DNA of 63,205 bases, filler included, from Rhabdomonas costata (Eukaryota), in assembly GCA_019059605.1 (NCBI GenBank). It is 44 parts of 44 records of this genome, joined end to end, with 100 filler letters (N's around TTAATTAATTAA, not from the genome) between each part and the next. Parts side by side here need not be neighbours in the genome. Positions count along the whole stretch, not along the records: positions 24,462 to 25,800 come from JAHMHO010018905.1; 43 more parts are not named here. One strand, 5' to 3'. The position numbers were made by a program, and so were the translations under genes. Positions 2,779 to 61,299 of the stretch are shown here, piece after piece (position 1 is the first letter of the stretch; every line of letters starts with the position of its first letter). Under the pieces are notes generated by a model. It was not told the DNA's origin. It made no database searches and was given only the letters and a program-made list of their open reading frames with translations.

Positions 2779-4414
2779 NNNNNNNNNNNNNNNNNNNNNN
2801 NNNNNNNNNNNNNNNNNNNNNNTTAATTAATTAANNNNNNNNNNNNNNNNNNNNNNNNNNNNNNNNNNNNNNNNNNNNGGTTGTGGTGAAGGGGGTGGGT
2901 TGGGAGAATGGATACAAAAAAGGCAGAAACGGAATGCAGAAGTCGAAATCGGGGAAAGGACCTTTAATACAAAGGCTCAGCCAATGCTGTACAAGCCAAG
3001 CGGAGTACATACAAAACGAGGCGTCCCTGCCCCGGTGAACTCTTCGGTAGCTTGGTGGGCCCCTGAGGCCTAACAAAGAAATATGATGAAAAGAAGAGAA
3101 CATGCTAAATCTCGAGGAAAACACGCAGCAATGAAGCGCTGACCTGGGGAATATTGTCGCGTAATGGTAGCCTTGTGTCAGGGTGGACTTCTTAAGTGGT
3201 GTTTGGTGTCCCGTGGTGCTATGGTGGGTTGGGTTGCTGGGTCCTTATGTGTGTTGATATCGCTCTTGGTGTGTTGTGGTGCTCAGGTGGGTCTTGCATT
3301 CGTGGTGGTCGCTTCTCTGTCTCTCTAGCCCATCTTACGCGTGGTGTTGCTTTCTGCTCGTTGTGTTGGTTCGTTGTCTCTTCGCGTTACTCCTTCCAGT
3401 CCGGCTTTGCACTCCCAAGTAGCATCCATGGTTACGGTTCGTGCGTATGTGATCTTCAGGTATTGGAATTGGCGTGTGGTGTGACATAAGGGGCACAGAA
3501 GAGCCGAAACCCCTAGCAGCGGACACGCAAACCCAGCAGCACCACTCAAGCAAACCTCAACCCCAACCCACCACCACGACCCACGGAACCCGAAGCACCT
3601 GCACACCCCTGGACTCACACCTACCCAACACAGTACCAACCCGACCTGAAGCACCACTACCCACCACCCCACGCTCCAACACAACCGTACAAGCACACAC
3701 AATGACACTGAACCACACCACCACAGCACCCACCACAAGGCCAACAAGTCCAAACCAACAACTGCGATGTATCCAGCACCATAACACCAACACGATACTC
3801 ACGCAAGGCCAAGCAACCAGACAACAGCAAACCAACAGCGTAAACAAAGGAGAAGTCGTAGCGAAGGACACCAGAGAAACAACGGGGGCCAACACAGAAA
3901 ACAACACCGAACCCAAGGAACACCACCCAGACACAAACACTTGCACGACAACCACAACCAACGAGACTACGGAGGAACCAAAGCCAAGCATTATACCCAC
4001 CAACGCAACACCAGCAGCAAGAACGACCCACAAAGACACCAAGGCAGCACATACCCACACAGTAGTCAGCACGAACACAGCGAAGGAACCCAGAAGCACA
4101 ACCCCACTCGTAGAAGCAATACCCCAGCGAACACCACCAAGCACACCCAGAGCACCCTGAGACCACGTTTGACCACCGAACCCTAACACCGCAAGACGGC
4201 CCCAAAGCACCAGAGACNNNNNNNNNNNNNNNNNNNNNNNNNNNNNNNNNNNNNNNNNNNNTTAATTAATTAANNNNNNNNNNNNNNNNNNNNNNNNNNN
4301 NNNNNNNNNNNNNNNNNTGTTGGGTGTTTTGGTTTTGGTGGTTTTATCTCGACTACCGCGGTCGCTCGGAAAGCAGACCAGCCAGGGATGAATGTGCGTG
4401 GAGGTGCGACGCAC

Positions 4415-5561
4415 CCGGCTGGTGATTAGTACGTCCGCGGATGCGCCCATGTGAAAGATCTCTGTGACCGAGTCGTTGACGTGGACCTCCAGCCCAGGAA
4501 CCGCGGCCTGCACAGCGGCGACGTCGAACTTCCCCTTAGGGGCCACGCACGCAAGGGAGGGGGGGGTGTTCTTTTGAAAGGTCGGGCATACATTTTTACT
4601 TTTTTTTGGGAAGTTGCAACTGTGGGTGTGGGTTTCGATTTGGTTGATTCCATACAGTACTACTATCGGTTTTTATATGGGCCCTTGCACAACTCAAGGC
4701 AAGCTTGGAACGAGCGAGGAGATAAATATGAACGACAGGCAAAATTGGAGCAACCCTGTAGACCAATTGCCAGCGTGGCTTGAGGAAAACAAACCCTCAA
4801 ACGTAAACGCGCGAGAAAAATGCACAGCAACTGCAATTTGATGTTGATGTTGATGCTGAGATTCACATCAAGCGACGGCGTCTCCATCCCCAATATATGT
4901 CTTCTTCATCCTCTCCCATCGTGCACACCGGTCCGGTGAGGAGGTAGGTGCACACTGCGCGGCCCGGAGTGACCTTTTGGATGACTCGGACAGCAGAGTT
5001 TGCCACCGCGGAGTAGTACTCAGGAGGAAGCTGCGAAAACAAACCGGAAACAAACCCCCTCCCGCTGTCACCGCATCACACCCTCGTACACATACCGAAC
5101 ACACCACTTGCAAAGGGGGAGGGGTTTTTCAAAGTTTTGTATTGGAATAGAGAGAAGAGCAGGTGCAAATGCAGATGCGAGTTTAACGTGCAACAATAGT
5201 TAATACCTTTGGCGACCGAAATGACAGCACTAGGTTGGGTGTAGGAGGCCACAGCAGGAGCGGACTGCGGAGGATGGGCAGCCTCCAGAGAGGGGGGTCG
5301 CTTTTGCGGTGCAAAAATGTATCAATACCTTTCCCCCATAAATTGAAAGGAGGCAGTTCTCCTCTTTTCCGAGGAAAGGCAGCCCCCTCAAGACCACCAC
5401 ACAACCACTCCTACCTCCCGCTTTGGAGAAGGGAAGGGGCGAGGCCGCACGTGGATGGCCACGGTGTAGCAGTCCTGGCCCGGTCGAGGAAGGCTACGGC
5501 CCCGGCCCCGCCAGTAGATGCTCCGCCACACAGGCACAGACAGGCAGTGGTTGACTTGCAT
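4415..5561 (-). CDS. GT11-like (alpha-1,2-fucosyltransferase-like) glycosyltransferase; exons 5561-5415, 5030-4929, 4534-4415
   Basis: Three phase-0 exons splice to ...CYTVAIHVRPRP...LPPEYYSAVA...LEVHVNDSVTEIFHMGASADVLITSR, the family motif order (AxHVR, LPxxYY, FHxxxxADVLxTS). Donors GTAGGA, GTGTGC, GTGCGT. Confidence 0.7.
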
Positions 5562-5962
5562 CTATCAGAGCAGGCAACCACGTGTGCCCCTACTCACAAG
5601 CTAACAAAAAACTTAAGATGAATTCAGACGTCGTCCCAGGTTAATTTTCCAAAAAANNNNNNNNNNNNNNNNNNNNNNNNNNNNNNNNNNNNNNNNNNNN
5701 TTAATTAATTAANNNNNNNNNNNNNNNNNNNNNNNNNNNNNNNNNNNNNNNNNNNNAACGGGAATGCGAATGTAGGAAGCGTATCACACCAATGGGAATG
5801 CGAGTGTGGGAAGTTCAGCAGATCACACTTATGGTAATGGGAATGTGGGTACTAAGCTCATACCAATGACATTCAGCAAGGGCTAAGGCCACCTGCCCCA
5901 ACCAAGCCTCGGAACATTGTGGATGGTCATCCACTGGAAGACAGCCCAAGAGCGGCAAGCGT

Positions 5963-6961
5963 GTGCATGGAAAGTGGGAAAACATTGACTATTTAGAACC
6001 GCAGCCTACAATTGCCCTGGACGAGGTAGAAAGGGAATCCATCCAACTCCGCTATGGACTCTGGAACAAGACAAGGGGGAGAACAGGCAACTTGTGTTTC
6101 TTGAGTGCGACGCTCCAAGTCTTGGGACTCATACTCCCCAAGCGCCATGGGCAATGGATCATAAGCAGCGCAAATCCAACCCAAGACGAAAGGGCATTTT
6201 CCGAAACACTGGCACGGATGTCGCGGCCTGGGAATCATCATGTGTTAAATCCAACGGCATTCGGGAAGGCGATATTTGACCGCCGGCCGCAGTTCGGGTA
6301 CGGGAGGCAGCACGATGCGATGGAATTTATAGGTCAGATGTGGGAAGTGATGCGAGAGGAATGTGACCGCACAACGATTCCCCAGTGCGAGCAAGGCCAA
6401 ATGACAGGAAGGATACGTTGGCCTTTGAGGAGCTTTCAGAGGTATCATGTCCCGATTGCGGGGCCCAACGCGAACCATAAGGGAAGCAATGTGGTTCTGG
6501 CAATACCTGAGAAGCCCTCGGTGACCCTTGAGGACTGTCTGCGGAACCATTTTGGGGTGGAAAAGCTGGAGAGTGCGTGCGGGAAAGCGCTAAATGATCT
6601 CGAAGATGCCAAAGCTGCTGGGTGTGAAGCGAACCGGTTTGACATGGAAACAAGGGTAGAGCGCAAGCAGCACTCGCCCCTGCCCATCTGAACCTTGTGT
6701 TTGTGTCACCGGACCATGGCGGAGTTTGACATCGTTGCAGTGGTCAACCACCAGGGTTTGGATGGCTGCGGACATTACACAGCTGACATTAAAGGGTGCC
6801 AAGATGGATTCTGGTTCCACTTTGACGATGAGAATGTTGCCCCATCAGAAGCCTTTCGAGCAAGGGAAGCGGTAATCCTGGTCTACAAATGGAATGGTCG
6901 ACTGCAAGAACATGTGCCAAAAACACACACTGTGCAGCACAGAGAAACTGTGTGTGTGTGA
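5963..6961 (+). pseudogene. Intronless ubiquitin-specific protease (peptidase C19/USP) domain, disrupted
   Basis: Cys box GLWNK...GNLCFLSATLQVL, RQHDAMEF, TLEDCLRNHF and His box AVVNHQG...GHYTA...WFHFDDENV. In-frame TGA at 6689-6691. The expected ISKMPKLL segment (~6596-6620) lies in another frame. Confidence 0.85.
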
Positions 6962-7624
6962 AGACCCTGACCAGGCATCGCGGAGGAAGGGGAGAGTGGC
7001 GGAACCGTACCGTTGTTCAGCCTCGGAGGCGGAAACAATTGGTGGAGTCAGGACGCGCCACACTAGTGGTGGACGCTCGGAACCGTGGTGCGAACNNNNN
7101 NNNNNNNNNNNNNNNNNNNNNNNNNNNNNNNNNNNNNNNTTAATTAATTAANNNNNNNNNNNNNNNNNNNNNNNNNNNNNNNNNNNNNNNNNNNNGGTGT
7201 GGGTGATTCTGAGTTCGATTAACTATCAGCTTCCCACCCCTTCTCAGTGGCCCTGTTCTATGCGGAAGAGTCCTCCTTTTTGTGTGGTCGCTTTGGCCCG
7301 TTTTCTGTTGTTGCTATTGTCGGTGGTGTTCACACGCACCTGATTTCTCAGTCACCCGTGCTGAAAACTTGGTGTTTGGGGTGTGGTGCCACTTAAAGAG
7401 ATACTTGATCGATTGAGAATTTTTAAAACGTCTTACAGAAGGGAAACAGCACACAAACGAAAGATAAAGAAAGTTACCAACCCAGCCAACTCGGAAGAAA
7501 AACAAAGAGGGAAAGACGAGAGGAGGGGAGGGGCCGGAGGCAGGGGCGGGGTCCGCACCCTCGCGCGCACTTGCCATCTGCCCACCCACCTGTCCGTACC
7601 CCGACGCCATCCTACCCAACGCAG

Positions 7625-17584: not shown

Positions 17585-17991
17585 GGCACTGTGATCCGAG
17601 TGTTCGACACAAAGCAGAGCAGCGGGGGGATCAAACCCATCCGAGAGGTTTTGCGGGCGACGGGCGGGCGGCCTTGCTCCATACGCGCTCTTGCATTTCC
17701 CTCTAAAGGAAATAAGGGGGGGGGGGAATGTGTGCGCCTCTTGCCCCGCGACGCTTCTTTATGTGCCGCTTCTTTCCGCAGACGGCACACTGCGGAGGGT
17801 CTTACGATGGCTTCTGCTCTTTTTTTTTTTCGCACGCCGCAGTTCCGGCGGGGCACCCAGTTTTGCGACATCTACAGCCTGTGCTTCTCTCACAACTCGC
17901 ACTTCCAGTGCGTCGCCAGCAGCACCGCTACGATTCATGTCTTCCATGTGGAGGGAGGTGACGCAGAGGGAGGAGCCCGTGCGGAGGCCAG
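17585..17991 (+). CDS. ATG18: PROPPIN autophagy protein (Atg18/WIPI family); exons 17585-17647 and 17843-17991
   Basis: GTVIRVFDT...IRE|FRRGTQFCDIYSLCFSHNSHFQCVASSTATIHVFHV contains the diagnostic FRRG phosphoinositide-binding motif. Phase-0 GT-AG intron 17648-17842. Confidence 0.92.
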
Positions 17992-18705
17992 GTCTGACCT
18001 CACCCAATTCGCAGTTCTGTTGTCTTTTTTTTTTGGTGATCACGGAGGGATCGCTCGTACAGTCTTTTCGTCTTGTCGAGGTGGCTTTTGTGATCTGTGC
18101 GCCTTAAATCAGACATGCGCGAGAAGGCAAGCAGTTTATGAGCTGTGCCGCGTCGTCAAGAGTAACTGGCCAAAACCACAACGGCTAAGGTCGCATCCCA
18201 TAAAAAGTAAAGTGATCATAAGCGCTTTCGAGCAACCATCCCGTGTAAGTGCAAATGGTGACTTTCTCGCCACGATTTCATCACCCTTTCATCTGTCACG
18301 GTCTCGAAGTGAAACGGGCAATTGTCGGTATTTCGGTTTTGTGGGATCTGCCGAATAGGCTTCCCAATAAGAAACCACTGCTTTTGTGTGTTTTCTCTCT
18401 TTTTCAGTGACACGAAGAACAGGACATCCAAGTATTCTTCCCCCTCTTCCGTGTGGACGCGTTTGATTTTGGCGGTTTGGGGATGTGGGTTTACGGAATT
18501 GATGTATCAAAATGCCCATCACGGTTGCGGTACGTTGTTCTGTGAGGGTTTTAGGAGTGGGGAAAGTTCATCTGTTTTGGCAGACAGGTTCCTTCACCAC
18601 ACCACNNNNNNNNNNNNNNNNNNNNNNNNNNNNNNNNNNNNNNNNNNNNTTAATTAATTAANNNNNNNNNNNNNNNNNNNNNNNNNNNNNNNNNNNNNNN
18701 NNNNN

Positions 18706-24065: not shown

Positions 24066-24745
24066 GCCACACACAGTCAGTCGATATTTAATTGGGGTCC
24101 AATAAAATCTCCCAGGTTCATATGGGATCTCCTTGCACGATGTCGTTCACTGTGTGGCTTGGCACGACGTTCTTTTTGCTTGTGTGGCGTGCATTCGGCA
24201 ACGTACCTGTCTCCTGCTCTTTGTTTCCTGCATCGGTTCATTTCTCCCGGGCCCTTTCTGAGGCGATCTTCATATTCGCTCACATGTTTCGCGGTGGTGG
24301 GATGAACCGATGCAGGAAACAAAGAGCAGGAGACAGGTACGTTGCCGAATGCACACACACCNNNNNNNNNNNNNNNNNNNNNNNNNNNNNNNNNNNNNNN
24401 NNNNNTTAATTAATTAANNNNNNNNNNNNNNNNNNNNNNNNNNNNNNNNNNNNNNNNNNNNTGTGTTGTTGGAATGAGGTAACACGCCCCTTGATGCAGC
24501 TCGCCGCCCCCCCCCCACACACACGCTCCCAATCATAACTGGCGATGAATAGTGGGAGGAACCCCGTTTGCCAGGGTGGGGTGGCAATCGATGGTGTGAG
24601 GGAAAACCTCTACCAAGACTTTTTCATACGCTACAGAGCTGGAAGCGCTGTAGAGTGCAAGATGGACGCAAAACATATGCCATTAAGCAGAAAGGACAGA
24701 GGAAAAAGAAGGAAATGCCAAGTATGTACAGAGCCCCGAAATTAC

Positions 24746-25766
24746 CATTGCAAAACACCGCAACGCTGTTGTCCGTGAGGCCGCCCACACTCAGCGGGGC
24801 GGTGATGAGGTCCGCCGTGAGCGCGCTGTCCGCGAAGCTGCCCAGGGAGCACGAGCCCCCCACCGTCGCGCTCACGCACCACACCGAGGAGCTGCGGTAC
24901 AACACGGTCCCCGTTCCTTGGGCGGTGTAGTACGAGTATCCCCCGTACACTCCCGCGACGTCGTAGATGCCGCCCACCCCGCGGTTGTTGGGATCCACGA
25001 TCTGAACGCTGCACGCTGAGAAGAAAAAGAACTGGCGCAGATCCGGAATCCACAAAACAAGCCTTTTCCACAAGGTCAGAGCTAGCATGCGGTGCTTGTG
25101 TTCAAATGCCCGCCTTCACGCAGAACTGACTGATTTTCCACTCGCTGTTCCCTCCCATTGAGGTGTACCCAGAAAGTAACCGCAAAAGGACTCCCCAAAC
25201 AAAACAAGTGCAAACATCAAAAGCAAAGCCAGTTTGTCAGCCGAGCGGCGCGCACGCAAGCATCAATGCACACCCTCAAAGGTGACGTAGTTGTGTGAGG
25301 AAAGGTCACTGCCAAATGCAACGTAGCCGTAGCCCGCGGTGGCCCAGCTTGTACCCCTGCAAAGGATCATCCAAAGAAAAAAGGATCAAAGACAGGGAGG
25401 TGGTGCATCGAGATATGTGACTTACCGCTGGGCAGGCCTGAAGGAGGCAGATCACCGACCCAAGACGTCACACAGGTATGATTTTCTTCACACCCCATCA
25501 TTATCTCATCCCACTCACAATACGTGGTGGCATTGATATCGAACCATGACCATCTGCAATGCCTTTGAAGCTTCGTCTTAATTTTCTTTCTTGATGGCGG
25601 GCCACGTCGGTGGAGCCTCTACAGTGGGTACACACACGCTTCGTGTACGTGGGTGGGTGTGATGGTGGGTGTGGATGAAGAACCATGAGTTCCGGAGGAT
25701 CCAGTACGGCGGGTTCGCAACGCTGTTATATCCCACCAGCACCACGGCATGGTCCCAGGCTGTACC
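24746..25766 (-). CDS. Papain-family (C1A) cysteine protease C-terminus fused to an extra module; exons ~25766-25684, 25356-25274, 25015-24746
   Basis: DHAVVLVGY...PYWILRNSWGTSWATAGYGY contains the catalytic His and Asn motifs. It splices in frame (phase 2, then phase 1) onto a 90-aa Cys-bounded exon. Confidence 0.92.
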
Positions 25767-27920
25767 CTTCAGAGTTAGCACAGCGTTGCGAACCCCCCCC
25801 NNNNNNNNNNNNNNNNNNNNNNNNNNNNNNNNNNNNNNNNNNNNTTAATTAATTAANNNNNNNNNNNNNNNNNNNNNNNNNNNNNNNNNNNNNNNNNNNN
25901 TGTTTGCCATTGGAGTGGAAAGTTGGGGGGGAGGGGCAGAAGACGTTGAGTCGTCAAAGTAGAGTGCTTAGCATCTCATCTTGGCTTATGTTTAATTTTC
26001 AATTACCTTTTTTTGATGTGCCGATTCCCACGATACTCGGATGGACGGCAGCCCCCAGCAGCTGTGACATTCCATACGGTCGATCTGTAGGTCACCTTCC
26101 CCATTCACTTGCAGATGCCCTTCGAGACGAGAGCAACCAGAGTGCAGGAAATGCAACGTCAGGTCGCCATGATCTTCTCGATGCGCCCCCTCTTTGCGAA
26201 CATTTGACAATCCTGCTTTTTTAACTGGTTTGGCTGTTATGTTATGTCCTTAATGCACGATGTGCTGTCATGTTCGTCAGGTCAAAAGTGAACTCAGTCA
26301 AAGCCCAAAACACGCAACAAAAGGCCCCTTTCAAGCTGTTTGGCGATGCCTCACGCAGCAGTGTGAAAACAACCGATCTGTTTTGGCGATTATTCAATGG
26401 TTTGGTTACTAACTATATGCTACAGCATTTACTTTTTTTTTTAGCAAAATGGGATTAGGCGTGCTGTTCTTGTTGCGTTGTCCCGCGCAGGGACGGATAT
26501 GGCTCGTGCACGAGGGGGCCAGTATTGTTGAGTCCGAGGTTCGCTGAGCCTTCGCATTCTCAATTCACGCCTTTTTGCTCCGTGACATTTTCGCCATTTC
26601 CCAGTGAAAATCAAGCATATGCTTTTTTTGTGTGATTTTGGTGCCCATGGTGTGGGGACCTGGCCCATGTATTAACATGGAATCCGGCGAATCCCTTTGC
26701 TCGGATTCTAGGGGAAATTTTGCGGGTGGTGAAGATGTGCCCACGCCCAAGGTGGACTTCCATTATATAGTTTCGTCATGGGTAATGATAAATGGCACAT
26801 ATTCGGTAGACGGGCGATAGGACAATATTGAAATGTGAAAGTGGTTAGGGCGCCATGGACGTGGGGGGGGGGTCCGGGGTACCCGCAACTTACCTTGCAA
26901 CGTTTTCCAAAATACTTTGAACAACCAAGGTTTTGGCCCCCCTCCCCCCCCTTATCAATGTTGGGTAAGACCGTTTTGCTAACCAACATTGAAAAATGAG
27001 AGGTGGAGGGGGGGTTGTTCAATTCCATTATGGAAAACGTGGTCTGAAAATGACTTTTTCGCAACGGCGGATTCCCAGCACCTAAACCTCCCGATTTTAC
27101 AGCCCCCCACAGAGTGGTGACACAGAAGCCTACGGCGTCGCTCCGCTCCGTGCTAAACTATGGCGGAAGCACACAAGTAAGGCTGAAAAGAGAGACAGGC
27201 ATGTACTTAAATGGCGATTTTGCGCGAATCAACACTGAAANNNNNNNNNNNNNNNNNNNNNNNNNNNNNNNNNNNNNNNNNNNNTTAATTAATTAANNNN
27301 NNNNNNNNNNNNNNNNNNNNNNNNNNNNNNNNNNNNNNNNGGGGGGTTGGGGTTCCGTGCCTGTCGGTGTGAAGCAGGTGAAGAGATTCAAATTTTTTAG
27401 AATCCTTACCTTTCACCTGGCTAGCTTGATGGCTTGCTCTGCGTTTTACCTCATTTGTTGCGCAAATCTACCCGCATCTACCTGCCTTGCTTTTGTATTG
27501 CAATTCACACCTTTGCTTCTGAGCATAGCAGTGGCGCATCTTTCTACTTCCGTGCCGCTGCAAAAAAAAATTCCGTCCTTGCTCTTCATGCCCCCTCTGC
27601 ATTTTGCATTTATGCTGTGTTCCAGACTTATCGTGTCAAACAAAACAAGCCAACCCAAAATTTATGTCGCGCGCATCACTGGATATTCGTTTGCTTTTAA
27701 AACACTCATATCAGTGATATATTCATGACGTATGTGCATCTAGCTCAAGACGCGCGAAATTTGGGAAGCCCCGTAATCTGTAAGGCGACGTCGTCATTTC
27801 CGGCCGTATCTTGCACATGGACAAAACTATTTAAAAGAGCATCCACGGTCGAACACATCAGTACAGAGCGGAGGCTGGCGTGAGGCAGGAGGTAGAGAAG
27901 CATGGAAAGGGAAAGCACAC

Positions 27921-31505: not shown

Positions 31506-34500
31506 GTTGACCCGAAGCTACACGACCAAAGAAGGAATCCCAAAAACACCACACACACCCAACACNNNNNNNNNNNNNNNNNNNNNNNNNNNNNNNNNNN
31601 NNNNNNNNNTTAATTAATTAANNNNNNNNNNNNNNNNNNNNNNNNNNNNNNNNNNNNNNNNNNNNGTGGGGTTTGTATGAAAAAGCTGTCAGGGTGTTTC
31701 ATCTTGCCGGATGAAAGCGTTATTTTCTGTGTCCATGAAAAATCAAATATGTCATCACTCAAACTACTTTACACCAAATTGAAATGGGCGCCTTCCAAGT
31801 TTTGGTTTTTCATCGATGCAAGTGTGCGAAGTAAAGCAACCCCGACTGCGCTAAACATTTGCAAAGTCTAGCTCTTTTTAGAATCCTGTCAACACAGCTG
31901 GTAAGGGGAAAGATGGGGAACTGCCCAGTTGAGGAGGCGGAGGTTAACTTGCAGGCGATGGACGCCAGCCACACGGCTCTGGTTGCGGCTGAGCTGAAAG
32001 CTGGATTTTTTCAGATCCTGCGATCCAGTACCCCTCTACTGACCATGGGGTTGTTCCCCACACCCCTTGGCGCTTGTGTTGGGTTTGAAAAGAGGGAGCT
32101 GGACAACGATTTTCATGCTCAAATGAACGCAAAAAAAAAAAGAACAAGGTCAAAGGGTCGCAGAAACTGAGCGAGGAGAGCTTGCGAACGTGCCAATCAC
32201 CCCGGTTTTGCTCTGGACTCCAGGCAGACCTGTTCTGGTATATTTACTTGTGCTTATTTCCTGAGTTCCTAAGTAAGTGAAGGCAGGTAACATGTTCACA
32301 AAACCCGCCCCACTCATTTCCGATGGCATTCGCTTTTACTGATCGATTGCGTTTGCTCTGGGAACAGTCAATTCCACACCACGCTCCGAATCCAGCCCTT
32401 CCAAATTACACAAACCAAGGACCAAAACATAAATCCATCATTTATGCGCAAAACACTCACTCAGGGTCAACCTTGCCACGCTTTCGAGGCTGCTGTGTCA
32501 CACCCACACTGGCGACGGTGTTGAGCTCTCCGTTCGGGAACCTTGCGAGGCGTTGCGGGTGGCGATCCGGCGTGGCTGCACCCCTTCAGCTGCTAAGGGG
32601 TGCGCCTACGAGTGCATCTACGATGTGAATCTCATCGACCTAGATGTCGAGCACATGTCTATCCCAGAGGAGGAGGAGTACGATGCCATTTTCCGGTGTG
32701 CTTGAATGTGCAGGTAGGTTTTGTTTTTGCAGGTAGCATTTTGTCGGAAAAAAGACGGTTTGAGGCGAATCTCTCCCCCTCCCCTTTTGAACCACTTTTT
32801 GTTCACGCCCGTGAACCACAGCGGCCGCATGCTTGTTCTGTGCACGGGGTCAAGTGTGGTGGCCCCAGCGCTCCCCTGGGAATCCGAGGGATTTGCCCTT
32901 GTTTATCGCAATGCAGGAGGTTAGCAAGTTCTGGTGTGCCTCCCCGCGCGAACGATGCAGCGCCAGCCCCATAGAGTCAAATGGAGCGAGCTGTCCAAAA
33001 CAAANNNNNNNNNNNNNNNNNNNNNNNNNNNNNNNNNNNNNNNNNNNNTTAATTAATTAANNNNNNNNNNNNNNNNNNNNNNNNNNNNNNNNNNNNNNNN
33101 NNNNGGGTTTTTTTTAGTGTGCTAGAAGGATTTTAGATTAGAGCATTAACCACAGCTTCGGAAGTCGGATGTTATGTGAAGCACGTAAATGTACTGTCAG
33201 TCCTGTCAGGGCTCAAAATACAGGAACACTCCTCCTGGGACACTGAGACCGTACGTGCCCTTCCTCATTGAGAAGTGAGCCAGGTTTTGTTAAACGAAGG
33301 GCACGGCTTAGCCAACGGAGCTCAGGTCTTTGCTGGTGATGGGCCCGGGCTCACATCATCTCTTCTCCCTCAGGATGCACGTGTGCAACGCCCTTTGTGC
33401 GGGGTTCATTAACGATCGGCCGCGGCTTCAGATCAAGGACTGGAAGAAGGTCAGACCTTCGAGGCATACCAGCTTCGAGTTTCACGAGACAGTTGCGCGA
33501 AGTACTGTGCAATGAGCTGCTGTACAGGATTTTACGCTCACTGTAAACAGCGTGCAGTGGTGTAGATTATTGTCTTGCCTTCTATTGGTACTTCGCTCAA
33601 TCACTGGTCCATCTGGCGTGATGCCGGGGAGCGGCATTTCCCTCTGTCGTTCGTGGAAGAGAAGAGAAGAGTATTGGGGGTGAAAGCGCTCTCGCGGGTC
33701 CGAAAAGTGGGAAGTGCAAGGCACGGGGATTCGGAGGATAACATTACAAAACATTGTTGGACCTCTATGTTTTCGCAACGGGCATCTGATCAGGTTGATT
33801 GAGCATTCTGAAGTGATCTTGAGAGATTTCGGGGATTTCGCTGATTGTTCTTCTCTTCCGAACCATCAGCTACTTTCGCTCTTCTGCTTGTGTTTTTTAT
33901 CTAGCTTGACAATGAAGTGGTTGCTGGCAACCGATGGTATCTGGTTGCCTGCGAACATTAGAATTCTTTCCTTCCCTCCCGTCAAAATGCATATCAATGG
34001 TGCCTAAAGAGCTGGATTTACCTTCGGGGTAAAGGGTCGGGGTCGCAGGACAGAGCTACACGCATTACTGCCCGATCGACGTTTAAAAAAACCTTGAAAG
34101 TAAACAACTACCAAGTGGGTAACCTCTGATTGGGTGGACCTTTCTGAGGCAAGCGGGAGGCTGGAAATAGAGTGCTCATGGTGAACTGATTTGAATACGG
34201 ATTTACCTTGTAATCAATTGCTTTGCAAGAAGAGCCTTTCGAGTGTAAGAAGATTCTCGTCCAAAAAACATCGGGCTGCTGCTGCAGTTGTGGCTACACA
34301 AAGACTTCAGCACCTTGTTCACCGATACGAAACGTAAACCTGCGCCACGTGCACACTTTTTCATTTTGCAGGTTCTTCCAGCGCGCAGAAGGCCCTCGCC
34401 AACTTGGTGTGTCCCCACACTTCGGCCACTTTCTCATCTTTCTNNNNNNNNNNNNNNNNNNNNNNNNNNNNNNNNNNNNNNNNNNNNTTAATTAATTAAN

Positions 34501-44615: not shown

Positions 44616-45953
44616 ATCCAACACCCTGCCCCCCTCTGCGGAAGGTCCGAACACATGAACGGAGGTGGTGCTCGCCGCGGTGGCCGTCCGAAGACCACGC
44701 AGATAAAGCTTGCCCAAATACCATCGTGGAATAGGGAGCAGGGTGTTGGATCTAACACGGCCCACGCCCTCGTCGCTGACGGCAACCACGGTAAATGCGA
44801 CATGGGGGCATTCCCGATGCAGTCGTCGAGCAATCTTTTGAGCGACGTTTATCAGCGCTGTGCCGTCAGCAACGGAACTATCGTAAGAGCGGGTCAAAGT
44901 CCATTTGTGGATTTCAATGGTGTGGTAATGCGTTGCCGGATCAGCCCTGTACAGAGTCTGCCCCGAGACCCAAATTTTGTGCGGGGAAGAGCTTGCACCA
45001 GATAAACCAGTGACAAGGGTCACCCCAGGTGTCCCAACCCCATTTGCAGCTTGTTTTTTGAGATAGAGTCGCTGAGCGTTGGCAGCTGCCTCAAAATTTT
45101 CTGTAATAGCATTTCGAGCATCGCCTTGAATCCGAGGACACCGAACTGAACTTACAGCGGACTTAGTCAAACAAGCCCAGAAGTCGCGCTGCCTAAAAAA
45201 ATCAATTCCTCCAGATCGCACTTCAGGACCCTTAATGGAGGGCACAGGAACAAAAAACCGACCAGATGACCAGCCCGACCTGGATTTCTCGCATACGTTC
45301 AGAATGAGAAAGCGAGGGCGGTCCTCCTCACTCATGTACCACCCAGCACGCCATAGAAAACCGGCAATAAGGTCAGTCGGCAAGCGTCGTTCAGGGGCGG
45401 ATGAACTCCCCACGTTGAACATCACATCCGGAATAATCACAAGCTTCCCACGCAGGTGATCCAGAAGCAGTTTTCCATCCGCTAAGACAGGCAGCGCCGG
45501 GTCAAAGTGCCCGTACCGAGAGATGGAGAACACTTCAAACTCCATCCCCAGAATCTCCTCAAGCAGTCTCTTCCATGACTCAAACACCCCTAGCTCTATC
45601 GCGGTGCTTGTCACCAGAATCGCACGAGACCGAGGATTCGGCACAAAGCCGGGCTCCGCCCGCGCCTCAAACCGCCGACGCTGAACATTGCGCCACTGAC
45701 CACTCCCCGAAATGTCTTCTATCGCGAGAACCGTATTCAGCGCAAACTGACTCATGGCTGGGGCGCCCGAAAGCAAAGTGACCTTCAGAGGAATCTCAAC
45801 GCTGCTCTTTGCCGCAATAACGGGGGTAAGGCACACATATCCTGGAAGCCGCTGGCTTCCCCCATCACACAACCGCTGGGACTCCCCATTCTCTTCCACC
45901 AACGAGTGCACTTGCCCATCCGCCCCTTCCAAAACAACATACTCCACCCCCAC
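44616..45953 (-). CDS. Uninterrupted ~446-aa ORF fragment of an uncharacterised protein
   Basis: Open across the whole contig with globular composition (AEPGFVPNPRSRAILVTS...WKRLLEEILGMEFEVFSISRYGH...LRGKLVIIPD). Confidence 0.8.
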
Positions 45954-47657
45954 CNNNNNNNNNNNNNNNNNNNNNNNNNNNNNNNNNNNNNNNNNNNNTT
46001 AATTAATTAANNNNNNNNNNNNNNNNNNNNNNNNNNNNNNNNNNNNNNNNNNNNGAAGCGTTTGCTGGAAGCGAATACGAGTGAATGAAGTTCTCGGTGG
46101 CCATTTCCTTCAGCCAGATGCCGGTCAGTGGCCTCCGCTTGATGTCGCCTTGGTGTCCGCCGGTGGCATCCTCAATGCCTGGAAAGCCCGGCCTTCATTT
46201 CAGTGCTGCGCAGAACCCACCGGGAGCCATGGAGATCCAGAAAAGTGGTCATGAGAGCAATCTGGTCGCATGAGAGGTCTGAAACGGGCGGCCTTCTTTG
46301 GATTCGGCGCCTTGCATCGAAATGTATTGCGCTTTAGCTGCACGACGACGCTCAATTGTCAGGAGGCTGGAGGTGAGGCGCTGTTTTGGCATGGTAGGCT
46401 ATGTTTCCCAAACCTGTGCGGATAGAGTCGCGCGGCTTCGGCAATTTACGCCCTCAGCAATTGTAAGATTGTTCTTCCGCTGAAGGACCTTTCTCGAATG
46501 CCGACAGAAGAGAAGGAACGTAGACACGAGCGCAGCGAGAGTCGGAGTGACAGAAAGAAGGAACATGAGGACATTGCGCAGCAAGGACGAATGTGAACCG
46601 TGAGCGTAACCGCATCGCGGTGGAGTGAACAATCTGTTGGAGGAATAATTCGAAGGAGCGAGCATGCGACTGTGTTTGTATCCTTCCCTTCGGTCCGCTT
46701 CTCGTCCCTCCACTCTCCTCACTGCTTCACTCCACCACAATAGGGTGCTTACGTGACGCCTCTCTACCATTACACTCTGTAGCGGTTCTGTCGATCACGC
46801 TTACTGGCATTGTACCTTGCGGGGCCCTTCCACTGAGCGCTGCATCGGAGTTACGCATAGCAGCATCGCTCCCTCTTACACTTCTGCCTCAGTGGTGGTA
46901 GAGGCTCGCTGTCACTCCTGGCATGCACTGTGGGTCAGGTGGCATATTCACTGCTTCCACTCCTGATCCTCACGTGGCAGCAGGTCTCAACCACCAGCAT
47001 CGCATAGCCATCATGTCAACATCACCCTTTACACCTTCTACGCTCTCACCTCTGTTACCTCTGGAGGGTGGAAAGAGGATGGATGTTGTATGTCGGCCTC
47101 GGCGGCCTCTGTTACAGAGGGAGTCACCAAGTGACTATGCTGACATCTGGTGTTTGGAGCGGTCCTACTGGTAGCAACGTCGATCCTCACGTACCTCTAT
47201 CACCAATGCTACTACAAGGTGTGTCGCATCAACCACCATGGCATAGGGTGTAGGGAGTGGGTCGAGTGCATCCATGCCATCTGTGGTGCTGTATCATCAT
47301 GTGTGGTGATGCAACCACCAGTGGGTAGGACTGCTGTGACCAACATCAACATCGCTAGTACTACTGCACGTGTGTACCTTAGCAGTGGTTCTNNNNNNNN
47401 NNNNNNNNNNNNNNNNNNNNNNNNNNNNNNNNNNNNTTAATTAATTAANNNNNNNNNNNNNNNNNNNNNNNNNNNNNNNNNNNNNNNNNNNNAAATTATC
47501 TTAACTGAAAATCCCTCGTTTACGTCCTTGTGTAGGTGTAGCAGTGCATTTAACATCCATCCTTACAAATGGGTCGCATGGAACTGTTGCCCCATTTGTA
47601 CCCCAAAAAGGACACCGCAGCATAAAAACCGAAAAGAGCACAAATATCCGACCTTGC

Positions 47658-55695: not shown

Positions 55696-55839
55696 AGAGT
55701 GACGTACAGGGCGACGTATAGGGGGACACATAGGGCGACGTATATGGCGACGCCTAAGGCTACCTACAGGGCGACACATAGGACGTCGCAGAGGGCGACG
55801 AATAGGGGGACGCAAACGGCGACGTACCGGGCGACGTAA
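55696..55839. repeat. 12-bp minisatellite, 12 degenerate units (consensus AGGGCGACGTAT)
   Basis: Exact 12-nt phase is kept through 144 bp. Confidence 0.9.
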
Positions 55840-60547: not shown

Positions 60548-61299
60548 CTGTGATGCAGCATTCCGAAGAACCCGCGCAGGGGATCTGAGCGCAGACCTTG
60601 GAGGCGTCGAGAAACACACCAGACCCCACGCATCCCCCGAAGTACGCGCAAAGCTGACCTGTGGAAGAGAAGTTGACCCAATGCCCTCCCCCCCGGTGAT
60701 CTTCATTCGTGGGATTTGACACGGGATGCACCACTTGAGAAAATGGAAAACCAAAAATTTCACGAATTCTTCTCTTTTTCGCAATCCCTACCCTTCTGCT
60801 TTGGAAAAAAGAAAATCGTCACAAATTGGGCACAGCCTTCGCACAATCCGCAATTATCCAAATATTTTTGCTCACGGCGAAATAAGGTAAATACATTTCA
60901 CATTTAGACTCACCGTCACAAGCCACTCCTTCAATCTATCCAGCTCAGGGTTGGGGTTGGGGTTAGGGTTAGGGTTAGGGTAAGCCATACTTGAGCACCG
61001 GCTCTTCATGGAGGGAACAGTGTATCCGTAACTGGAAGATGCGTACCAGACCGACCACATCTCCGTGAGCTGCTCGGGGGTGCCGACGTCCTGGGAGTTG
61101 TACGTGGAGTACACGCTGGCGGAGCCCAGTAGCGGGCCCGTGGCCCACCCCACCCCAGACGCGTAGTACAAATACTGCACACTGGCCTCGTTGAAGTAGT
61201 ATGGGCGGCCCGCGGAGAAGCCTGTGGCGTAGTACAGCCCGTTCATGTGGTTTAAGGGGGCCGTGAGCCCGCTGATGGCGATGTCGCAGGCCCCCGGCA
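60548..61299 (-). CDS. Mosaic, probably extracellular protein; two phase 1-1 exons, 61299-60991 (103-aa module) and 60658-60548 (37-aa six-Cys module)
   Basis: TAG/GTATGG and CAG/GTAGTT boundaries; lengths 309 and 111 nt. ACDIAISG...NGLYYATGFSAGRPYY...LYY...W and CAYFGGC...VCAQIPCAGSSECC. Confidence 0.8.
60945..60980 (+). repeat. Interstitial telomere-like repeat (TTAGGG/TTGGGG, 6 units)
   Basis: TCAGGG TTGGGG TTGGGG TTAGGG TTAGGG TTAGGG, inside an intron. Confidence 0.85.

Follow-up and report, generated by a model that had tools for sequence, protein, structure and literature searches.

Papain-family cysteine proteases can carry cysteine-containing, non-catalytic domains after their catalytic domain, as in the granulin domain of plant RD21-type enzymes and the C-terminal domain of kinetoplastid cruzipain. 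The class 1-1 modules of animal proteins (EGF, CUB, Sushi, kringle and others) provide a second point of comparison: each disulfide-bracketed domain has an exon to itself between phase-1 introns, occurs with varied partners and in tandem repeats, and is often joined to proteases. For metazoans, PMC6547436 states that domains are flanked by phase 1-1 exons in strong excess, and exon shuffling is reported for the ROCO genes of brown algae in PMC11378527. Here we describe a protein module encoded by two exons, e1 and e2, in a window of 63,205 bases deposited under Rhabdomonas costata. The window, meaning the whole stretch of DNA that was analysed, consists of 44 contigs of ~1339 bp each linked by N's, sampled from a eukaryotic assembly that is highly fragmented, with two module copies in ~59 kb. 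The large family that the preliminary description of this DNA derived from these two copies is a conjecture.

Our best explanation is that the module is a mobile, undescribed, all-beta domain of ~95-100 residues that is encoded here on symmetric phase 1-1 exons, that splicing would add e1 to the C-terminal end of a cysteine protease of the papain family, and that e2 would belong to a gene of a different type. We assign this explanation as a whole, including the fusion and the type of the e2 gene, a probability of about 0.8.

Two module exons and their family

Both exons lie on the minus strand (Table 1), where the translations quoted in a preliminary description of this DNA were recovered exactly. 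All splice sites and junctions were placed by consensus and homology. So placed, e1 would be bounded by the acceptor ...ttcttctcag/CG and the donor AATG/gtaatt, and e2 by the acceptor ...ccataatag/TG and the donor CTCAA/gtatgg (a slash marks the junction); the acceptors consist of a pyrimidine-rich tract followed by AG, and the donors are GT. Each of the four junctions falls between the first and second bases of a codon, and the two exons have lengths divisible by three; this agrees with the earlier claim of two symmetric phase 1-1 exons with one domain on each. The GC content of the first, second and third codon positions is 0.55/0.55/0.89 in e1 and 0.48/0.55/0.86 in e2, with ~0.4-0.5 in the flanks, and among all window open reading frames (ORFs) of at least 60 aa these two rank highest by the excess of third-position GC content (GC3) over that of the first two positions. 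e1 and e2 are real coding exons in these frames.

The preliminary description had related the two exons by aligning them with each other, and at this level the claim did not hold. Direct BLASTP gave 30% identity over 67 residues (E 0.002 in a single comparison), and a tblastn search of the whole window with e1 placed e2 at E 0.80, below four other matches of which none was significant, so that the pairwise alignment alone is no better than chance. The shared family was recovered with a profile built from the database relatives of e2, with e1 excluded. Searched alone against two rounds of this profile, e1 scored 35.7 and 33.7 bits. In a window-wide search of 1888 six-frame pieces, e2 scored 92.8 bits and e1 32.1 bits (E 8.5e-9, profile positions 9-86), and the best remaining piece scored 8.1 bits; shuffled versions of e1 (1000 made, 919 scored) reached at most 6.7 bits. 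Because a profile made without e1 scores it far above both its shuffles and the other pieces of the window, we place e1 and e2 in one family. A third profile match, at 31947-32243 (8.1 bits, E 0.25, 23 residues), was dismissed.

When e1 was compared with 172 individual family copies, the best match had an E of 1.4e-5, and since its closest copies are not e2, the two exons are old, diverged members of the family and not a recent duplicate. Additionally, a tblastn search of the window with one family protein, P0009, aligned e1 from its first to its last Cys (E 0.055). Four residues are near-invariant in the family, namely Y34 (the Tyr of GRPxY), W51, P74 and W81 in e2 numbering. All four are present in e2; e1 keeps the Tyr and the first Trp, has Ala for the conserved Pro and Leu for the second Trp, and is therefore a divergent copy. 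Terminal cysteines are found at both ends of e1 (C...FC) and e2 (AC...RC), which together with the profile scores bears out the description of a Cys-bounded module, one domain to each exon. In the ESM Atlas, which we used as a lead only, both exons retrieved clusters without names, some of them shared by the two, and recognition was low.

A phmmer search of 1.84 billion representatives with e2 returned 46 proteins at E<=1e-3, four of them at E<=1e-10 (best 2.7e-13), with up to eight matched stretches per protein, and the profile located 209 copies in 82 of the 84 proteins fetched, at 1-10 copies each. A word-index homologue search returned none for e1 at E<=1 and none for e2 at E<=0.001, the index being too coarse for this family. 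The family signature reads C-x-I-x-(V/L)-x-G...G-x-Y...G-R-P-x-Y...(Y/F)-L-Y-Y...W-x-(I/V)-G...P-x-x-(I/L)...W-x-V...C. The closest relatives of e2 are short proteins of 81-213 residues, several of which have a hydrophobic, signal-like start. Named carriers are the annelid Owenia fusiformis and the copepods Tigriopus californicus and Eurytemora carolleeae, and further carriers come from EukProt transcriptomes and metagenomes.

Pfam scans of 63 proteins, together with precomputed labels, revealed at least eight sets of partner domains: astacin with CUB, MAM/SRCR/EGF, EGF with trypsin, calpain, RING with a TRAF zinc finger, TIR, HEAT, and the VWA/Sushi/HYR/EGF/pentaxin set of a 4532-residue protein. 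A protease domain is present in 16 of the 84 proteins (12 trypsin, two astacin and two calpain), and each of the two calpain carriers, P0011 and P0032, has two modules and a calpain domain. The proposed mobility across architectures was thus upheld, and the module is of a mobile, mostly extracellular kind. We also observed two signalling-type architectures in which the module stands in place of the usual recognition parts: P0005 has a RING domain, a TRAF zinc finger and three module copies, and P0006 has five copies followed by TIR.

No existing family accounted for the module in Pfam-A (2025 copy). Neither e1 nor e2 matched any family at E<=10, and among 40 aligned copies no family was common to any two at E<=1; these copies matched 11 different families, one match each, with a best E of 0.0024. 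In the 63 scanned proteins, Pfam families fell on partner domains only and none on the module stretches. For Pfam, the first description of the module as unnamed therefore extends from the two exons to the wider set of copies. Searching PDB sequences with the profile gave a marginal match to domain 2 of the type IV pilin-like Geopilin (6vk9_D, E 0.035, 17.1 bits), which was absent from the fold searches described below, and a search of full-text literature for the motif GRPVY found nothing related.

Predicted fold and the cysteine bracket

The fold check proposed in the preliminary description was carried out with AlphaFold2 (AF2) and Foldseek. The AF2 models had a predicted local distance difference test score (pLDDT) of 95.1 and a predicted template modelling score (pTM) of 0.87 for e2, from a 40-row alignment, and of 94.5 and 0.84 for e1, from a 25-row alignment. 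Nine strands follow one another in the same order in both models, which points to a small, barrel-like domain. Foldseek found nothing in the PDB at E<=0.001 (best E 1.2).

With VIA-align, the top PDB chain for both models was a region of Cryptococcus DNMT5 (7r76_A, residues ~871-1158), with a Z of 8.1 and a root-mean-square deviation (rmsd) of 2.7 A over 92 of 102 residues for e2, and a Z of 6.9 and an rmsd of 2.5 A over 80 of 89 residues for e1. In contrast with the module, the DNMT5 region is nuclear and has no Cys bracket; identity is 9-15%, and the match is spread over ~285 residues. Where the DNMT5 preprint treats this region, it speaks only of an 'alpha/beta region' within ATPase lobe 1, to which it attributes no binding role. 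Next in rank, at a Z of 4-5, came small barrels. Up-and-down barrels of this kind (avidins, designed barrels such as 6d0t, HtaA CR domains and the cathepsin C exclusion domain) resemble the module in size and in their all-beta meander, but at a noise-level Z of 3.2-5.3 over most of the model, with no sequence relation and no sign of a ligand pocket. In BFVD, the best match of both models was a putative calpain of an Aureococcus anophagefferens virus (A0A076FI00), at a probability of 1.00 and a TMq of 0.64 for e2 and 0.61 for e1 over 96-97 columns. This comparison was by structure only, and its Foldseek E was only 0.011 and 0.072. The match fits the arrangement of two modules and a calpain in P0011 and P0032, and suggests that the module, in its calpain-linked form, may be present in a giant algal virus; when viral contigs were scanned with these two proteins, there was no match.

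The terminal cysteines could be evaluated in 149 copies, of which 76 have both, 23 neither, 43 the C-terminal one only and seven the N-terminal one only. The pairing of the two gives a Fisher p of 8e-5, a value to be read with the copies not being independent. The 23 Cys-less copies sit in nine proteins, one of them a calpain. The copies with a C-terminal Cys only belong mostly to a trypsin-linked subfamily in which an extra internal Cys is frequent (profile column 71, in 92 of 212 aligned copies). Terminal cysteines are usual in the secreted forms, where a disulfide would join the first and last strands, and the pattern is that expected of a disulfide needed only outside the cell. We tentatively suggest that the module may be a non-catalytic binding or targeting domain through which proteases and receptors would be directed to a ligand or surface. 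This suggestion, for which the odds are somewhat below even, draws on the repetition of the module, its partners, its Cys bracket and the accessory domains of other multidomain proteases.

The genes around e1 and e2

Upstream of e1, an exon cut by the contig end scored 33.4 bits as Peptidase_C1, where the cut-off is 20.7 (profile positions 154-190 of 220). It holds the regions of the catalytic His (DHAVVLVGY) and Asn (ILRNSW); the Cys region falls past the contig end. The exon that follows, at 25274-25356, received no score from Pfam as a 27-codon piece alone. We take it to be the continuation of the papain motif NSWG..W..GY (NSW-GTSWATAGYGY...). It ends at a phase-1 donor, GAGG/gtgtgc, three codons before an in-frame TGA (25263-25265), and splicing from this donor to the acceptor of e1 would read ...VTFE-A-CSVQIV.... 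The matching phase-1 donor and acceptor, 258 nt apart, argue that e1 is probably fused to the protease. Of the fusion claimed in the preliminary description, the papain exon upstream of e1 is thus real, and its joining to e1 is read from the splice phases only. The arrangement would resemble the granulin and cruzipain extensions in placing a Cys-containing, non-catalytic domain after the papain catalytic domain; it differs from them in that the fusion is putative here and in that e1 and e2 have no Pfam granulin match and no sequence relation to those domains.

Past e1, a candidate acceptor, ctctacag/CG, with a pyrimidine tract lies at ~24650 (24640-24660, minus strand), ~95 nt after the e1 donor. 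As judged from the nucleotide sequence, it could open a short last exon that, if in phase 1, would add ALPAL and a stop codon. A domain scan found no further domain downstream of e1 or on the e2 contig.

On the e2 contig, a third phase 1-1 exon follows e2 and encodes a linker with six cysteines. It is new relative to the preliminary description, and adds two phase-1 junctions to the four of e1 and e2. BLASTP of the linker against the 84 family proteins matched P0009 (E 2.6e-6 and 9.3e-6) and P0004 (E 3.6e-6) with all six Cys aligned, and in both proteins the same six-Cys linker follows the module. In tblastn searches of the window, the linker exon was matched at E 0.001-0.007, colinear with the match to e2. 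Residues 11-127 of P0004 correspond to e2 and residues 128-161 to the linker exon, colinear and on the same strand, and since the match breaks exactly at the e2/linker junction (127/128), the e2 donor is confirmed.

No protease domain was found on the e2 contig. By its predicted exons, the gene that holds e2 differs from the papain gene and belongs with those short secreted proteins in the databases that are built as 'module - Cys-rich linker - module'. The preliminary claim that the module is shared between unrelated genes could be checked only in part: the e2 contig, with its linker and no protease domain, represents another architecture. An ATG-led ORF (MGIVSLHLSL...) just upstream of e2 was considered as a signal-peptide exon and rejected, as its GC3 is ~0.3 and its sole downstream GT would leave an intron of ~20 nt. 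A telomere-like (TTAGGG)3(TTGGGG)2 repeat lies on the plus strand at 60947-60981, inside the putative intron after e2 and ~10 bases past the e2 donor.

Table 1. Features on the e1 and e2 contigs, in window coordinates (a slash marks a splice junction; introns and junctions are putative)
Feature	Position	Strand	Details
Module exon e1	24746..25015	-	270 nt, phase 1-1; profile match, AF2 model, GC3 0.89
Putative intron, papain exon to e1	25016..25273	-	258 nt, phase 1; GT...AG, polypyrimidine tract, GC 0.45-0.55
Last papain exon, (W)GTSWATAGYGYVAFGSDLSSHNYVTFE	25274..25356	-	83 nt; acceptor tttgcag/G completes Trp codon
Peptidase_C1 exon	25684..25800	-	Cut by contig end; phase-2 end TCATG/gttctt; Pfam PF00112
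Six-Cys linker exon, (S)QLCAYFGGCVGSGVFLDASKVCAQIPCAGSSECCIT	60548..60658	-	111 nt, phase 1-1; acceptor ttccacag/GT; GC3 0.72
Putative intron after e2	60659..60990	-	332 nt, phase 1; CTCAA/gtatgg to ttccacag/GT
Module exon e2	60991..61299	-	309 nt, phase 1-1; profile positions 1-99 of 99, AF2 model, GC3 0.86

Elsewhere in the window, a Pfam scan of the 20 longest ORFs gave UCH (5870-6691) as the sole domain above its cut-off and a weak, below-cut-off match to PROPPIN (17585-18358). With one such domain the window appears gene-poor, which makes the two module exons more notable. One whole contig, 44616-45954 on the minus strand, is a single ORF, listed at 476 aa and scanned at 445 aa, with no Pfam family. 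A degenerate 12-nt tandem repeat occupies 55701-55838 (11.5 copies, 69% matches; alternatively a 60-nt unit), and an Rfam search of the window gave no matches.

Alternative readings and the reach of exon shuffling

In all three module and linker exons of the window, the exon ends coincide with the domain ends between phase-1 introns. Such phase 1-1 cassettes could be duplicated, or inserted into other phase-1 introns, with the reading frame kept, much as in the animal class 1-1 modules. The module differs from those modules in its fold and sequence family, which has no Pfam model, and in occurring also in a Cys-less form beside a cytosolic calpain. The sole related genomic locus compared comes from another organism. 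This locus, L001, is a 7606-bp contig of a metagenome collection, found with P0031, of which its product is a 69%-identical relative. In its gene (4300-7604, plus strand), module copies take turns with EGF-like linkers, and a trypsin domain comes last. The ORF at 5637-7604 runs without a break through three module copies and the start of the trypsin domain. An intron splits one copy, and two further introns lie within EGF-like linkers; all three introns are in phase 0. The correspondence of one module to one 1-1 exon thus did not extend to the copies at this one locus, and is at most a property of the genome sampled here. Internal introns in other copies, which the preliminary description had named as evidence against its reading, are thus present in that organism, while the three-of-three pattern in the window is unaffected. 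The preliminary proposal of an independent system in this protist is only partly supported: the same module occurs beside classic animal modules, and with carriers in Owenia, Tigriopus and Eurytemora it is not private to one lineage. Overall, the preliminary observation was confirmed, and its interpretation is partly supported.

Several points weigh against our explanation. Every splice is read from sequence and homology, the 1-1 pattern comes from three exons only, and L001 has phase-0 introns that disregard module boundaries. e1 is without two of the four near-invariant residues. The agreement of the two AF2 models is not fully independent, because their input alignments overlap, and we draw no function from the likeness to DNMT5, because a Z of 7-8 is typical of models without true relatives. 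Finally, Peptidase_C1 is found in none of the 84 family proteins, and the protease could end at the TGA, with e1 in another transcript, because this stop lies nine bases past the proposed donor. Were e1 and e2 unrelated, their common GxY...YY...LY spacing would be a chance likeness of Gly/Ser/Tyr-rich sequence, as the poor pairwise scores and the low ESM Atlas recognition values (1524 and 1479) might be taken to imply; we regard this as scarcely credible given the score of e1 against a profile made without it, set against shuffles of the same composition, its direct matches to several family copies, and the identical strand order and top structural neighbors of the two models. That the module is already defined under some name in InterPro, CDD, SMART, PANTHER or a paper is improbable, although somewhat less so, as the negative results cover Pfam-A, PDB sequences and full-text literature only. 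It is opposed by the lack of any Pfam match shared among the 40 copies and of related literature on the GRPVY motif, and by the carriers' titles in UniRef and NCBI ('EGF-like domain-containing protein', 'uncharacterized protein' and 'hypothetical protein'), which are generic and therefore suggest that no signature covers the repeats.

Two further alternatives, which concern the gene and its source, are unlikely but carry more weight. If the papain gene ended at the TGA, e1 would belong to a separate downstream gene or an alternative transcript. The papain domain is essentially complete at this stop, and in papains ~20-27 residues follow the GY motif; these facts, the nearness of the stop to the donor and the lack of a papain partner among the family proteins all fit such an ending. 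However, the good phase-1 acceptor of e1 needs an upstream phase-1 donor, and the closest coding exon on the same strand supplies one. The sequence between them is intron-like in its GC content, the sole in-frame ATG that precedes e1 has low-GC surroundings and would begin a poor signal peptide, and fusion to proteases in general is common for this module. We therefore continue to favor the papain fusion. The contigs could also derive from an animal, or from animal contamination, in which case the 1-1 exons would reflect ordinary metazoan exon shuffling; we judge this about as unlikely as an ending at the TGA. All named carriers are animals, many partners are classic animal modules, and the TTAGGG repeat beside e2 is a telomere repeat that occurs in many animals. 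None of the points on the other side is decisive: the closest relatives of e2 are short and without animal partner domains, two of them carrying the Cys-rich linker; EukProt transcriptome assemblies are the source of some family members; the neighbors in the ESM Atlas are labelled Haptophyta, a weak indication; the best viral structural match belongs to a virus of a pelagophyte alga; and the introns of L001, the only genomic locus of animal-like character, are arranged differently.

A broader reading, which we consider speculative and rather doubtful, is that a eukaryote outside the animals, whose genome is large and poor in genes, may use 1-1 cassettes of the module and the six-Cys linker to assemble secreted proteins and protease appendages in a big family. 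This would parallel metazoan practice with an ancient module that is common to animals, protists and a giant algal virus and is unnamed in databases. If the source is a protist, three of three phase 1-1 exons in ~59 kb would make a useful case for the reach of exon shuffling beyond animals, a question that PMC6547436, in the part concerned with exon-domain alignment in some protists, has already partly answered in the affirmative.

What is new here is a domain family with no Pfam model and with a confidently predicted fold that Foldseek does not place in the PDB. The module adjoins proteases of different catalytic types as well as TIR- and TRAF-type signalling parts, and its spread is wide but patchy, taking in an annelid, copepods, protist transcriptomes and probably the calpain of a giant virus. 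With a name for the family, long stretches that are now unexplained in many large proteins of invertebrates and protists could be annotated.

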